DNA of 26,384 nt from a candidate division WOR-3 bacterium. Lineage in GTDB: Bacteria; Hydrothermota; Tepidihabitantia; SM23-42; JAOAFX01. The stretch spans positions 6,405 to 32,788 of the forward strand of contig CBFGIH010000001.1 of NCBI GenBank assembly GCA_965648775.1. Direction: 5' to 3'. Positions 1,553 to 5,912 of the stretch are shown here, piece by piece. The first letter of the stretch is position 1. Each line of letters starts with the position of its first letter. The translations under genes and the position numbers were made by a program. The notes beneath the pieces were generated by a model. That model was not told where the DNA came from. It worked only from the letters and a program-made list of their open reading frames with translations, and did no database searches.

Positions 1553-1589
1553 CGTCCATTGTTTAATCTTTAGGTTTTAAAAATTTTCT

Positions 1590-1661
1590 TGGGGGATCGT
1601 CTAATGGCTAGGACGATTGGCTCTGGACCAATTGATCGGGGTTCGAATCCCTGTCCCCCAG
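1590..1661 (+). tRNA. tRNA-Gln(CTG), CCA not encoded
   Basis: Acceptor stem TGGGGGA/TCCCCCA with U1-A72, D arm TCGTCTAATGGCTAGGACG, anticodon stem ATTGG/CCAAT with loop CTCTGGA (anticodon CTG 1623-1625), T loop GTTCGAATC, discriminator G1661. Confidence 0.97.
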
Positions 1662-1736
1662 TATTTTTTTATTTTTAAGAAAAATAATTGTAAATATTGA
1701 AAAACCCGCGATGATCTTGGTAACCAGACCGCTGAT

Positions 1737-2789
1737 TCACCGAATTTTTACAATCTTCACGGTTACATCCGTCCCTGCGTCGCTTAAGCGGGCGAAATAT
1801 ACGCCCCCGGATACGGAGCATCCTTTTTCGTCTGTCCCGTCCCAGAATACAGAATTGATAATACCTGAACTACGGAAAGACATGTCCTTCACCAGGCAGC
1901 CCGTTGCGGTATAGATCCGCACGCGCAAGGTCTCGATCAAGCATCCTGAATCATGGAGCGTGAATCGTATAGCGTTAGCAAACGGATTGGGCGCAGCGGT
2001 CATGGCTCGCGGCCATCCCGCATCATGATCTTTGATCCCGATATCCTGCTCAATCATGCCGTAAATATCATAGTCGGACAGGTTTTCTGACCAAAAACAT
2101 GATCGGTATCCGAGCCCGGCCGCGGCTGCCGGGTGTCCCCGAAGATGAAAGACGCTGTCAGAAATAACCATGGGGCCGGTGATCGGCTTACCGGCCTGAT
2201 CCAGGAACATGCCCCGGATCTGTCCTGGTCCGTTTTCCCAAACCAGAAAATAATTCTCGCCGTCAAAGACAAGGTCGGGATTGTTTTCCGCTACCAGCTC
2301 CTGAACCAGAATCATGGGCGTGTCGATCGGCATCCCGCCGCGAAGCAACCGGCCGAAAATATCCAGGGTACCGGTTGCGCCGAAATCCGGCCAGACGACG
2401 AGATAATCAGTGCCGTCGAAGGCCGCGGCTGGTCGCGCCGCGGCAGCGCTGATGGCGGCGATCCGCATGACCGTATCCTGCGGTAAGGCCTGATCGTCCA
2501 CAAATCGACCGCAGACCGCATCGAATTCGCGCGACCAGAGAATCAGCGTCTGGCCCGAGCCGCGCACCGCTACCGGATAATTATTGCCCTGGTCAATCGT
2601 ATAACCGGTGTCCATGACAATTCCCTGGGGCGATACGCGGGACGCAACCACGCCTTTATTTTCCCGCGCGTCCCAAAAAGAAACAATGTAATCTGCGCTG
2701 TTGAAAATCACGGATGGAATATTCTGACCGCCCTCGGCATTGCAGATGAAAACGGTATCCAGAATCGTCAATTGGGGCGTGACCCGCAC
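1737..2789 (-). CDS. C-terminal segment of a secreted repeat (beta-propeller-like) protein with a T9SS type A/FlgD-Ig C-terminal domain; probably translated in frame with 2811..3116 through a recoded TGA
   Basis: Repeats such as FDGTDYLVVWPD..DIFGRLL and FDGENYFLVWE. The C-terminus reads PNPF..VRIYTATGCLVK..VFWDGTDEKG..GGVYFARL..VKIVKIR. It has no signal peptide or usable RBS of its own and shares the frame of the upstream ORF. Confidence 0.8.
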   Translation of the reverse strand: MRVTPQLTILDTVFICNAEGGQNIPSVIFNSADYIVSFWDARENKGVVASRVSPQGIVMDTGYTIDQGNNYPVAVRGSGQTLILWSREFDAVCGRFVDDQALPQDTVMRIAAISAAAARPAAAFDGTDYLVVWPDFGATGTLDIFGRLLRGGMPIDTPMILVQELVAENNPDLVFDGENYFLVWENGPGQIRGMFLDQAGKPITGPMVISDSVFHLRGHPAAAAGLGYRSCFWSENLSDYDIYGMIEQDIGIKDHDAGWPRAMTAAPNPFANAIRFTLHDSGCLIETLRVRIYTATGCLVKDMSFRSSGIINSVFWDGTDEKGCSVSGGVYFARLSDAGTDVTVKIVKIR

Positions 2790-2795
2790 TCCCCA
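2773..2795 (-). promoter_or_regulatory. candidate bacterial SECIS-like hairpin downstream of in-frame TGA
   Basis: On the minus strand, TGGGG-A-GTG-CGGGT-CAC-G-CCCCA spans +16 to +38 after TGA(2811-2813): 5-bp stem, A.G mismatch, 3-bp stem and a 5-nt loop with G at position 2. Confidence 0.55.
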
Positions 2796-2810
2796 GATAT
2801 CAGCATTACT

Positions 2811-3116
2811 TCAACAGCTGTCCTGGATTGCCACCAGAAAATTAACACCATCAAACGCCGCATCGACCCATTCGCCGCGGTCACGAAGAATTTCCCGGCC
2901 TTCGGGATCGATAACCGTACCGTCATTCGCAATCCGGGCGGCAAAAACTGAGCGATCAGGAGGGTAATATCTGAGATCCAACCAGAAAACATAAAAAGTG
3001 TCATTATGGCTGATTACCGAAGGATAAAGTTGATCATTGAATGCTTCGGAAACAGGGAAGGAACTTCCCAGGAAAAGCAGCCACCATAAAGTCGGCATAA
3101 AATCAGGGATTAGCAT
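2811..3116 (-). CDS. N-terminal segment (signal peptide plus first repeats) of the same secreted protein; ends ...IQDSC-TGA (possible Sec codon)
   Basis: Hydrophobic N-terminus (MPTLWWLLFLGSS; alternative ATG at 3098) followed by the same repeat type (NDQLYPSV..FYVFWLDLR..SVFAARI..G.VID; FDGVNFLV). Confidence 0.75.
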   Translation of the reverse strand: MLIPDFMPTLWWLLFLGSSFPVSEAFNDQLYPSVISHNDTFYVFWLDLRYYPPDRSVFAARIANDGTVIDPEGREILRDRGEWVDAAFDGVNFLVAIQDSC

Positions 3117-3189
3117 TCAGGGATTAGGATTAAGCAATACTCACGAATTAATGCCTAATATTAATTTCTCTTTCCTGATCCCGCTCAAA

Positions 3190-3271
3190 TGCCGGGGGCG
3201 GGATTTGAACCCGCATGCCCGAAGGCCTACGCCCCTCAAACGTATGTGTCTGCCAATTCCACCACCCCGGC
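3190..3271 (-). tRNA. tRNA-Leu(GAG), long variable arm, CCA not encoded
   Basis: Reverse complement reads GCCGGGGTGGTGGAATTGGCAGACACATACGTTTGAGGGGCGTAGGCCTTCGGGCATGCGGGTTCAAATCCCGCCCCCGGCA. Anticodon loop TTGAGGG, class II variable arm, discriminator A. Confidence 0.97.
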
Positions 3272-3280
3272 AGGTTGATA

Positions 3281-3417: not shown

Positions 3418-4647
3418 ATGCCGGTCATTCTTGATTCGAATAACCGCCAAATTCCGGTCGGCGCCGAACTTATCGCTCTCAATGGACATCGAATCGACGA
3501 TTTCCTGGATTTTCGTTTTTATCATGAACCGGGCCAGGACCGCCGGGTCACCATCCGACACCATGGCCGGCGCCGACAAATATTGATTCGGGCGATGACG
3601 CCCTTAAACCTCACGCTGTCGGATCCGGTCTATCGTCGTTGTCAGAATGACTGCGCTTTCTGTTTTGTCAATGGCCTGCCCGGCGGACTCCGGCCCGAAC
3701 TTTATTATCGGGATGATGACTATCGGTTGTCTTTCCTGTTCGGTAATTTTTTGAGTTTAACCAATCTGACCGGAAAAGATATTTGTCGAATCGCCCGGCT
3801 CCGGCTTTCCCCCCTTTATGTCTCGGTCCACGCCACGGTCCCGGCAGTGCGCCGGCGGCTTTTTCAAAACAAACGGGCAGGATTAATCATGGAACAGTTA
3901 AAAAACCTGATTCGGTGCGGTATTGCGATCCACGCACAGGTGGTAGTTTTGCCGGGCATCAATGATGCCGCGGTATTGAACCGGACAATCAAGGATTTAA
4001 CCGCTCTTTACCCGGGCGTCGCTTCCATCGGCGTCGTGCCCGTTGGCGTTTCCCGCTTTTTGAAAGGAATCAAACCGATGTCGCGCCGCGCCGCGGCTGC
4101 AGTCTTGACCGCGGTCCAGCGGTTTCATGTTTTCTGCCGGCGAAAGTTCGGCCACGGATTAGTGTATGCAGCGGACGAATTTTATCTTAAATCCGGCACG
4201 GCCATTCCCGCCGCCGGTTATTATGACGATTTTCCCCAGCAAGAAAATGGTATTGGCATGGTTCGACGATTTATGGACGAAACGGCTCAGCCGAAATTGC
4301 GGCCGCCGCGTGCCGGACGGTTCCTGTTTCTCACCGGCGAACTTGCTTATCCCTGCCTGCGGCGCCTGGCCCGGATCCTGAGCAGCCGTGCCGGAAATAG
4401 TAAAATAAAAATTAAAGTCGAGCCCGTGCGCAACCGTTTTTTCGGTCCCGGGGTGAATGTCGCCGGCCTTTTGACCGGTCAGGACCTTGAAAAACACATC
4501 TCCCGAAATGGCCGGAAATTCGACCGCATCGTTCTACCGCCCACCTGCGTGAATGAAAAAAGGCGCTTTCTCGATAACTGGACCATTGACGACCGCCGGG
4601 TCATCGTTGCGCCCCCCACCCTCAAGGAATTAATGCGATGCCTGTAA
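3418..4647 (+). CDS. DUF512-domain radical-SAM-like Fe-S protein with N-terminal PDZ-like region
   Basis: CQNDCAFCFV (CxxxCxxC), LYYRDDDYRLSFLFGNFLSLTN, SVHAT, GINDAA, QQENGIGM, VNVAGLLTGQD; located directly upstream of der. Confidence 0.85.
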   Translation: MPVILDSNNRQIPVGAELIALNGHRIDDFLDFRFYHEPGQDRRVTIRHHGRRRQILIRAMTPLNLTLSDPVYRRCQNDCAFCFVNGLPGGLRPELYYRDDDYRLSFLFGNFLSLTNLTGKDICRIARLRLSPLYVSVHATVPAVRRRLFQNKRAGLIMEQLKNLIRCGIAIHAQVVVLPGINDAAVLNRTIKDLTALYPGVASIGVVPVGVSRFLKGIKPMSRRAAAAVLTAVQRFHVFCRRKFGHGLVYAADEFYLKSGTAIPAAGYYDDFPQQENGIGMVRRFMDETAQPKLRPPRAGRFLFLTGELAYPCLRRLARILSSRAGNSKIKIKVEPVRNRFFGPGVNVAGLLTGQDLEKHISRNGRKFDRIVLPPTCVNEKRRFLDNWTIDDRRVIVAPPTLKELMRCL

Positions 4648-5912
4648 TCGCCATTGTCGGCCGTAAGAATGTCGGAAAATCCACCATCTTCAACCGGCTC
4701 GTCGGCATGAAACGCTCCATTGTTTATCACGAACCGGGTGTTACGCGGGATCGGGTTTATGGGGAAATTCTCTGGCGGGGCCGAACTTTCACCGTGATCG
4801 ACACCGGCGGCTTTTTTCCCGAAGAAGAAATCACCCTGGCCGCTAAAATCATGAACCAGATCGAAATGGCGTTGCAGGAAGCAGATCTGATTTTTTTTGT
4901 CGTCGATAACCGTCAGGGCCTCACCGCGATGGATGATGAAATCGCCCGGCGCCTGCGCGTTCTCGGTAAACCGATCTTCCTGATCGTCAACAAAGTTGAC
5001 ACCAGCCGCGAGGAAACCAAAATGTGGGATTTCAGCCGGCTCGGTCTGGAACAAATCTTTCCGGTATCTGCCGAAGCCGGGCTGGGCTTTGGAGAAATCC
5101 TGGACGCCGCGGCCTTGCTCCTGCCCAAACCTTCACCGCTCCGGCGGGACAAGCGAATCAGAGTTCTGATTCTGGGACGACCCAATGCCGGCAAGTCCAC
5201 CCTGCTCAACACCATCATTCGTCAGGAACGAGCGATTGTCGACGAGCATCCCGGCACGACCCGGGATCCGGTGAATGCGCGCTTTGATTTCCGCGGTCAG
5301 GTCCTGGAGTTAATCGACACCTGCGGTTTCAAAAAACGATCCCGTCTCCAGGAACCGGTCGAATTCTATTCGGCCATGCGGGCCATCCGGTTCATTGACG
5401 AGACGGATATCGCAATCTTGCTGTTTGACATTACCCAGGGGGTGGTCGGCGAGGATCGCCGCATTTCCTCCCTGCTTTTGGCCAAAGCCCGGAGCATTAT
5501 CATTGCTCCCAACAAGATTGACCTGATTTCCAGAAAAGATGTGTCCCGGGTAATTCACGCCGCCCGTCAATCTTTCAACTATCTTGAATTCGCGCCGGTC
5601 ATCCCGATTTCGGCCCGATCCCGGCTCAATATCGAAATGCTATTGAATACGATCCTGGACGTTCACGCCGAAGGCGGAAAAACCGCGGACAAAAAAGTCC
5701 TGCGCGGTTTGACTGAGGGGTTAAAACCACCGGCCAATGGCGAAGTGGTGAAAATGGTCCAGACCGCAACGCGGCCGCCGGTTTTCCGCCTGACCGCGAC
5801 CCGGCCGCTCAAGGAAAATTACCTGCGGTATGTACGGCATGAAATCCGGCGTTATTTCGGTTTCCAGGGCGTGCCCGTGCTGTTGAAAACCACGGTGCTC
5901 AGGAAATCATGA
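4638..5912 (+). CDS. der: ribosome biogenesis GTPase Der (EngA)
   Basis: Two tandem G domains (GRKNVGKST/DTGG/NKVD and GRPNAGKST/DTCG/NKID), PGVTRDR and PGTTRDP switch motifs, C-terminal KH-like domain (RPPVF..YLRY..FGFQGVP). Confidence 0.96.
   Translation: MPVIAIVGRKNVGKSTIFNRLVGMKRSIVYHEPGVTRDRVYGEILWRGRTFTVIDTGGFFPEEEITLAAKIMNQIEMALQEADLIFFVVDNRQGLTAMDDEIARRLRVLGKPIFLIVNKVDTSREETKMWDFSRLGLEQIFPVSAEAGLGFGEILDAAALLLPKPSPLRRDKRIRVLILGRPNAGKSTLLNTIIRQERAIVDEHPGTTRDPVNARFDFRGQVLELIDTCGFKKRSRLQEPVEFYSAMRAIRFIDETDIAILLFDITQGVVGEDRRISSLLLAKARSIIIAPNKIDLISRKDVSRVIHAARQSFNYLEFAPVIPISARSRLNIEMLLNTILDVHAEGGKTADKKVLRGLTEGLKPPANGEVVKMVQTATRPPVFRLTATRPLKENYLRYVRHEIRRYFGFQGVPVLLKTTVLRKS

Follow-up and report, generated by a model that had tools for sequence, protein, structure and literature searches.

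A candidate multi-copy selenoprotein family with an invariant Cys-UGA site in a predicted exported beta-propeller

The window analyzed here is a 26,384-nucleotide stretch from a candidate division WOR-3 bacterium (assembly GCA_965648775.1, contig CBFGIH010000001.1, positions 6,405 to 32,788). On its minus strand, positions 3116..1737 form one reading frame with a single interruption, a TGA at 2811-2813 straight after a Cys codon. An initial annotation, made from the sequence alone, had proposed that this TGA specifies selenocysteine (Sec, U) in an exported protein with a Cys-Sec pair, and the computational checks reported here support that proposal. We consider it very probable that UGA 2811-2813 is read as Sec by the standard bacterial route, which would give one exported protein of ~453 to 459 amino acids (aa).

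The interrupted gene and conservation of its Cys-UGA site

Reading the frame confirmed that two open reading frames (ORFs), 2811..3116 (101 aa) and 1737..2789 (350 aa), lie on the minus strand in the same frame with the TGA and seven open codons between them. The joined reading, ...FDGVNFLVAIQDSC-U-SNADIWGVRVTPQ..., has 459 residues, with U as residue 102. Gene callers take a GTG, seven sense codons past the TGA, as the start of the 350-aa ORF. According to the ortholog alignment, a second ATG (3098) may be the real start of the gene, which would shorten the protein to 453 aa and place U at residue 96. The TGA sits within one repeat unit, as the annotation had noted; the corresponding unit in TGA-free relatives reads FDGTNYLVVWxDxR[NSG]xxxDIYGARV. 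TGA is otherwise a normal stop in this organism, again as annotated: it terminates 313 of the 771 ORFs of ≥300 codons in the window genome and 10 of the 55 family genes that we read, and the gene's own stop is a TGA too (1737-1739). The central features are as follows; SECIS stands for selenocysteine insertion sequence and bSECIS for its bacterial form.

1737..3116, minus strand: whole candidate selenoprotein gene, 459 codons plus TGA stop; a single frame, end-to-end alignment with 32 relatives, one continuous predicted fold
2811..2813, minus strand: in-frame UGA, predicted to be read as Sec (residue 102 from the first ATG); invariant in 55/55 members, 130/130 pattern matches and four assemblies
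2814..2816, minus strand: invariant Cys codon (TGT) immediately 5' of the predicted Sec codon; C101 is an invariant alignment column
2773..2795, minus strand: SECIS-like hairpin; -10.7 kcal/mol, with pairing, wobble-position covariation and agreement with the bSECIS model

We searched for homologs in six frames in 40 related genomes and the window's own (3 families and 15 genera of one order), and found them in all 41. Among the listed matches, those with an open frame of ~364-517 aa (~105 rows) each had exactly one in-frame TGA, while the TGA-free matches belonged to long repeat proteins, whose frames stay open for 594-1457 aa. We then read 55 distinct members codon by codon, which included orthologs, paralogs, members from another family of the same class and members from another class of the phylum. 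Across 33 of the relatives, the paralogs included, identity was 23-47% against the window protein. In all 55, Cys-TGA occupies the identical alignment column, the downstream ORF follows in the same frame after 0 to 7 open codons, and the site conforms to the motif [QR][DN][ST]-C-U-x-x-[AG]-[DN]-[ILV]-x-G-V-R-V-T-[PAS], in which C101 and U102 are invariant columns.

The strongest single test of UGA conservation was a scan in which the codon in question was left free. The pattern consisted of Cys, any codon, two free codons, [AG]-[DNEK], a codon with T in the middle (mostly I/L/V), a free codon and G-V-R-V-T. Across 272 genomes of the phylum the matches listed numbered 130, in 59 genomes, and in all 130 the codon after Cys was TGA. 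The reversed pattern, used as a control on the same genomes, gave 0 matches. The annotation had named beforehand the outcomes that would speak against it, namely a sense codon, TAA or TAG at this site, or a genome without Sec machinery. No sense codon, TAA or TAG appeared, no genome family had the signature while lacking Sec machinery, and in every relative read the TGA was kept after Cys with the frame open. One member (locus L048, G017:C32:14970-16268) has an extra in-frame TAG besides the conserved TGA, which may mean that the copy is decaying or that its sequence contains an error.

The codon is equally stable within the strain. In four independent assemblies of bioreactor-sludge metagenomes, which contain a ~99% identical strain at 170-324x k-mer depth, positions 2811-2813 are unchanged and there are no indels. 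Six single nucleotide polymorphisms fall inside the gene, four synonymous and two conservative, and they are placed on both sides of the TGA. By the Nei-Gojobori method on ten ortholog pairs, omega was 0.04-0.18 before the UGA and 0.07-0.28 after it. Both halves of the gene are under purifying selection. In the 12 codons past the UGA, synonymous divergence (dS) was lower than in the flanks in 9 of the 10 pairs. The idea that the window strain has suffered a nonsense mutation, or that the gene is a pseudogene or an assembly error, is refuted by the same TGA in 130 copies, the agreement of the four assemblies and the purifying selection on both sides; nothing but the bare presence of a stop codon speaks for it, and we regard its probability as negligible.

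It is also very unlikely that the TGA is a true stop within a conserved gene pair, with a ~100-aa secreted N-terminal protein followed by a ~350-aa C-terminal protein. Public protein sets do hold only the downstream ORFs of family members, as gene callers annotate them, and a possible GTG or ATG start usually follows the TGA within a few codons. However, the two parts never leave the common frame or lie more than seven codons apart in any of the 55 members, and the downstream start varies (MADIF..., MGVRV..., MWGVR...). The stop falls in the middle of a blade, and the model of the joined protein (see below) keeps a predicted local distance difference test score (pLDDT) of 92-98 across it. The downstream piece would be without a signal peptide and the upstream piece without a sorting domain. 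Finally, dS is reduced, not raised, in the codons that would be intergenic.

The downstream hairpin and the selenocysteine machinery

Family members share a core hairpin, GGnGUG-CG[U/G]GU-CACnCC, with a 6-bp stem and a 5-nt loop, which begins 18 nt past the UGA. In the window, the core stem is formed by 2787-2792 paired with 2776-2781 and codes for G-V-R-V-T-P. The full hairpin consists of 5 bp, a 1x1 A-G mismatch, 3 bp and the loop CGGGU (2782-2786), and its folding energy of -10.7 kcal/mol includes the extra basal pairs. The bSECIS model asks for a loop of 3-9 nt, an upper stem of 4-16 bp, a G within the first two loop positions that is usually followed by G or U, a UGA-to-loop distance of 16-37 nt, and a minimum free energy of ≤-7.5 kcal/mol (PMC13188914). 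The window hairpin agrees with each of these, having a 5-nt loop, a 6-bp stem, a G at loop position 2 and a spacing of 24 nt in addition to its energy.

Pairing is kept throughout the family. Over the 55 sequences, 95.8% of the stem cells are paired (95-96% when an earlier set of 40 sequences is included), compared with 41-61% when the partner strand is slid by one to three columns. Only two wobble-wobble pairs are informative because the stem overlays the conserved Gly-Val-Arg-Val-Thr-Pro codons, and these two of the six pairs, which join third codon positions, both covary. Pair 3 (Gly wobble with Thr wobble) is AU in 31 sequences, GC in 8, CG in 7, UA in 3 and GU in 2, with 4 unpaired. Pair 6 (Val wobble with Val wobble) is GC in 47, CG in 7 and AU in 1, and is paired in every sequence; the flip to CG occurs in the members from the other class of the phylum. 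The covariation score was 0.262, against ≤0.077 in the slid controls, and was reached by none of 500 shuffles. The RNA also seems to constrain the protein, because Ala codons would break a U-A pair: the blade with the predicted Sec always has Val (GVRV) at a position where generic blades mostly have Ala (GARV), and from this comparison the hairpin appears to force the Val. An Rfam scan around the UGA site returned only noise, Rfam having no fitting general bacterial SECIS model, and the loop of the family hairpin has no obvious sequence in common with that of the selD SECIS in the relatives.

The window genome (G000), a 68%-complete metagenome-assembled genome (MAG) in 299 contigs, encodes selA (541 bits), with selB (339 bits) next to it on the downstream side, and a tRNA-Sec whose anticodon is TCA. 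The search suggested by the annotation for selA, selB, selC and selD thus found three of the four in this genome; Sec-type selD was found in 35 of the 41 genomes, each time with one in-frame TGA. Several relatives have two Sec-type selD genes with one in-frame TGA each (G017:C21, G019:C7, G016:C17, G001). Manual pairing of the tRNA-Sec (L010:1501-1594, that is, G000:C25:10582-10671) gives a 7-bp acceptor and a 5-bp T stem, 12 bp in all; the 7+5 form is the unusual "Cloacimonetes type" (PMC5330540).

Across the phylum, selA was found in 120 of 272 genomes, and the Cys-UGA-hairpin signature is limited to families that contain it. In the window's own order, the signature is present in 13/15, 27/31 and 2/2 genomes of three families. 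Three other families of the same class have it in 1/1, 1/2 and 9/44 genomes, and one family of another class has it in 5/6. No genome of a selA-free family among the 272 carries it. Of the 59 signature genomes, 53 have selA and the other six belong to selA-positive families, four of them with Sec-type selD, an association that is descriptive and not a statistical test, as the genomes are related to one another. Three genomes with family members and completeness of 90-98%, G037 (a single contig), G006 and G022, gave no selA match at E ≤ 1e-60, and Sec-type selD is present in G037 and G006; their selA may be frameshifted or divergent.

These data bear on whether the UGA could be read through without selenium, the hairpin stimulating a near-cognate tRNA to insert Trp, Cys, Arg or Gly. 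A conserved UGA, an open frame and a hairpin demonstrate recoding and not the identity of the inserted residue, and selD is missing from the window MAG. We nevertheless think this explanation unlikely. In its spacing, loop size and loop G the hairpin matches what SelB-type SECIS elements have, only selA-positive families show the signature among the 272 genomes, and a standard residue, if acceptable, would be expected in some of the 130 copies, none of which has one. The site also stands beside an invariant Cys, which is typical of Sec redox or metal sites.

Insertion of Sec remains the preferred reading. By the established bacterial pathway, SelB with Sec-tRNA(Sec) would bind the hairpin starting 18 nt 3' of the UGA. 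Sec would then be inserted and translation would go on, the hairpin itself encoding the next beta-strand, GVRVTP. Selenium-dependent termination is an inherent property of SelB-dependent recoding. A refinement of the Sec reading would make such attenuation the point of the site, the UGA mostly terminating at low selenium and the full-length surface protein being made when selenium is available. This inherent property and the repetition of the device in many paralogs per genome would suit it, while the invariant neighboring Cys argues for a chemical, not purely regulatory, role of Sec, and we give the refinement very little weight.

Fold, export and TGA-free relatives of the predicted protein

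We built an AlphaFold2 model of the joined protein with a 33-sequence alignment (mean pLDDT 86.8, predicted TM-score 0.75; pLDDT 92-98 over residues 81-120, the junction included). The model has seven four-stranded blades (residues ~20-357, pLDDT mostly above 90), a linker (359-380) and a beta-sandwich (383-457); its 28 strands in seven groups are those of a seven-bladed propeller. The annotation had placed U102 of a 459-aa protein in a blade loop, and the model agrees: the predicted Cys-Sec pair lies in blade 2, in the loop joining its second strand (93-99) to its third (106-112). Loops of this kind, in the standard propeller topology, are on the face that usually bears binding or active sites. 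The remaining features of the gene include a sorting domain of the kind used by the type IX secretion system (T9SS).

3042..3098, minus strand: N-terminal hydrophobic segment MPTLWWLLFLGSSFPVSEA, putative signal peptide; helix in the model at residues 8-14
2046..3059, minus strand: predicted seven-bladed beta-propeller, residues ~20-357; 28 strands in seven groups of four, propeller matches
1977..2042, minus strand: predicted disordered linker, residues ~359-380; pLDDT below 50
1740..1970, minus strand: predicted C-terminal beta-sandwich, T9SS type-A-like sorting domain; sub-threshold matches to TIGR04183, FlgD_ig and the C-termini of PorU and PorZ

The annotation had assigned a signal peptide to the upstream part and a T9SS/FlgD-type domain to the downstream part. 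A hydrophobic N-terminus and a sorting-type C-terminus were indeed seen, but neither reaches the cut-offs and a basic n-region is lacking. TIGR04183 scored 20.7 bits against a cut-off of 23, and FlgD_ig 16.8 against 27; the matches to the C-termini of PorU and PorZ are likewise sub-threshold. Two close homologs, P0004 and P0022, carry a recorded PF18962 domain. Of 40 members, 34 have a 9-aa stretch of strong hydrophobicity close to the N-terminus. Genes for the PorU sortase and the SprA translocon are found in the window genome and in four relatives. The PorU homolog of the window genome is split (G000:C112:2357-4231 and 4263-5576), compared with a single ~1280-aa frame in relatives; a frameshift, a misassembly or a genuine interruption could account for the split. 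Export and surface attachment of the family proteins are likely. The product would be a seven-bladed propeller of a widespread ~50-aa repeat. Blade 2 alone departs from the repeat, with the invariant Cys-Sec standing in its strand 2-3 loop instead of the usual Arg-x. Judging from the N-terminal hydrophobic signal and the T9SS-type domain, the protein would be exported by the Sec translocation system, pass through the type IX system and end attached to the cell surface.

The long TGA-free relatives are made of tandem ~50-aa units, FDGTNYLVVWxDxR[NSG]xxxDIYGARVxxxGxVLD, in which Arg-Asn, Arg-Ser or Arg-Gly takes the place that Cys-Sec has in the short proteins. This repeat occurs in 22,508 representative proteins at E ≤ 0.001. 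The TGA-free proteins have weak matches to the Pfam family DUF3659 (PF12396; 27-44 bits), which gave no match in the window protein at E ≤ 1. By their sequences, we take them to be paralogous repeat proteins and not Cys orthologs. They share the ~50-aa blade repeat, often a T9SS tail, and the same genomes with the window family. They differ in being twice as long (850-950 aa, with ~12-13 matched repeat stretches) and far more widespread, and in having Arg-[Asn/Ser/Gly] in every blade, no UGA and no hairpin. Four of the long TGA-free repeats (P0182, P0184, P0209 and P0222) are named "FGAM synthase PurS component", from apparently spurious PF02700 matches, and the name is probably an annotation artefact.

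The prediction that Cys-Cys homologs would be found in genomes lacking Sec was not borne out: lineages without Sec machinery lack the family. The free-codon scan of the 272 genomes found no Cys or other sense-codon form, and in the selA-free family that was searched the protein family is absent altogether. In the Sec-using family with the signature in 9/44 genomes, the TGA is present in every match of 430-480 aa, and the other matches are long repeats or fragments at contig ends. A search of 5.8 billion proteins returned only truncated downstream ORFs and generic repeat proteins, with no Cys form among them. The Cys-Cys motif had two matches in 241 million metagenome records, both by chance in unrelated frames. 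A search with an N-terminal hidden Markov model profile was uninformative for Cys forms, being swamped by long generic repeat proteins. Candidates for non-Sec forms (P0229, P0240, P0241, P0243, P0255, P0256, and the shorter TGA-free matches in family f14) proved to be generic repeats, pieces cut off at contig ends or matches by chance. A generic repeat protein (locus L102, G218:C106:8954-9724) has one blade that reads QDSC-G-S...GARVTP, with Cys-Gly in a context much like that of the Sec blade; this may be left over from a TGA-to-GGA change, or may reflect convergence.

Several observations weigh against the Sec reading or some part of it. selD was not found in the window MAG, which is 68% complete. 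The stability of the hairpin is unexceptional (z = -1.6 isolated, +1.2 in a 67-nt context), the minimal hairpin of one relative folds at -5.2 kcal/mol, and most of the nucleotide conservation in the hairpin could be protein-driven, as it overlaps a conserved peptide. The signal peptide and the T9SS domain of the window protein are below curated thresholds. Fold searches gave generic propellers only and no functional lead. Last, the absence of a Sec/Cys pair among homologs takes away the customary validation, although it does not weaken the Sec reading itself.

Novelty, known systems and possible function

Strict-signature copies number 1 to 8 per genome, with more found by protein search. The window MAG has two. 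The second member (G000:C4:22318-23433; L046:315-1670, minus strand) is a 452-aa protein, 34% identical, with the same Cys-UGA and hairpin. Paralogs are often tandem or clustered; three lie within ~10 kb in one genome (G019:C28, 8058-9263, 12824-13897 and 17693-18742), and others are at G020:C1 35845-40952 and in adjacent pairs in the other-class family (loci L079 and L080). The window gene is flanked by tRNA-Gln(CTG) at 1589-1662 (plus strand) and tRNA-Leu(GAG) at 3189-3272 (minus strand), an arrangement that is absent at 18 ortholog loci from other genomes. No conserved partner gene was identified beside the family loci, where flanking ORFs were not analyzed systematically.

We know of no match for this architecture in family catalogues, in line with the initial annotation. 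In Pfam and NCBIfam (the latter scanned at E ≤ 1), the joined protein matched no family outside its C-terminal tail. Among the 119 prokaryotic selenoprotein families inventoried in May 2026, none is listed as a propeller, repeat or T9SS protein, and the words propeller, secretion, surface and Cloacimonadota do not occur in the text of that inventory (PMC13188914). The deep-Sep and BSepDB papers mention no such selenoprotein. Literature searches found no relevant report of a selenoprotein with type IX secretion or in Cloacimonadota, with coverage that is incomplete, and an earlier description is possible. The window protein appears to represent a new protein family within the bacterial SECIS-dependent selenoproteins, unusual for its predicted surface export and propeller fold, its multiple copies and its lack of a Cys form.

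At the gene level, the family resembles other bacterial SelB/SECIS genes, of which Escherichia coli fdhF is the prototype, in its in-frame UGA, its coding-region hairpin just downstream with a loop G, and the presence of selA, selB and tRNA-Sec in the genome. It is unlike the catalogued selenoproteins in that the protein is unrelated, the SECIS stem is fixed on a near-invariant GVRVT, and no Cys homologs were found. The annotation had likened the site to mammalian thioredoxin reductase. The vicinal Cys-Sec of the Gly-Cys-Sec-Gly end of that enzyme can form an eight-membered selenenylsulfide ring. The window protein has the vicinal pair in common with the reductase without homology, and differs in having it at residues 101-102 of 459, in an internal blade loop instead of a flexible C-terminal tail. 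It also has no flavin domain and no N-terminal dithiol partner, and its predicted location is extracytoplasmic.

Vicinal Cys-Sec is not unique to the reductase. The same adjacent Cys-Sec is shared by six bacterial CU-motif families, HgcA, SaoL, SaoC, MbdU, KCU-star/DUF466 and Csac_0668 (PMC13188914 Table 1). None of their catalogue NF models was returned by the NCBIfam scan of the window protein, and Pfam returned only FlgD_ig. By their names, several of these families are small or metal-binding proteins, which sets them apart from a predicted secreted propeller. Metal binding is plausible for the window family because several CU-motif families are named for metal or organometallic chemistry. 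Among predicted envelope selenoproteins, the FCYXU type of TonB-dependent receptor and the MtrB/PioB-like protein GSU2204 are comparable in location. These are integral outer-membrane barrels, whereas the window protein would be a soluble propeller with a T9SS domain, in multiple copies.

Foldseek matched the model to propeller lectins (Photorhabdus, Aspergillus), sialidase-like and GH43 proteins and unnamed AlphaFold DB clusters, with TM-scores up to 0.69. The top match in the PDB was PorZ (5m11; E 1.4e-8), in which a propeller is likewise combined with a C-terminal T9SS domain. With a TM-score of 0.43, an identity of 12%, two propellers in PorZ and no Sec there, the likeness is generic. From chemistry and analogy, the pair would most likely be either a reversible selenenylsulfide or a soft-metal/chalcogen-binding site exposed on the surface. 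Binding or transformation of sulfur, selenium or metal species is a possible function that we put forward tentatively; thiol/selenol exchange with a substrate or a partner protein seems somewhat less likely.

The family is confined to lineages that use Sec, all within one uncultured phylum whose samples come from bioreactor sludge. With moderate confidence, we see in it an obligately selenium-dependent, T9SS-displayed propeller family with many paralogs, whose sole distinctive site is Cys-Sec and which has no Cys version anywhere. If this is true, selenium-specific chemistry (redox, chalcogen or soft-metal capture) takes place on the outside of anaerobic sludge bacteria, the SECIS is fixed within the codons of the beta-strand that follows, and the family is invisible to a standard Sec/Cys-pair search. 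A family without a Cys form is a blind spot of that strategy. Gene callers cut every copy in two, and public databases hold headless fragments as a result. Because the copies are split in this way, selenoproteome counts of the phylum would miss up to eight or more genes in a genome. A SECIS lying over a structural beta-strand would clearly exemplify a sequence with a double role, in RNA and in protein. Selenium supplementation is known to elicit a response in digesters, and, speculatively, a multi-copy surface selenoprotein family could add to their selenium demand. With a type IX-exported surface propeller, selenium biochemistry would gain both a fold and a compartment that are new to it.

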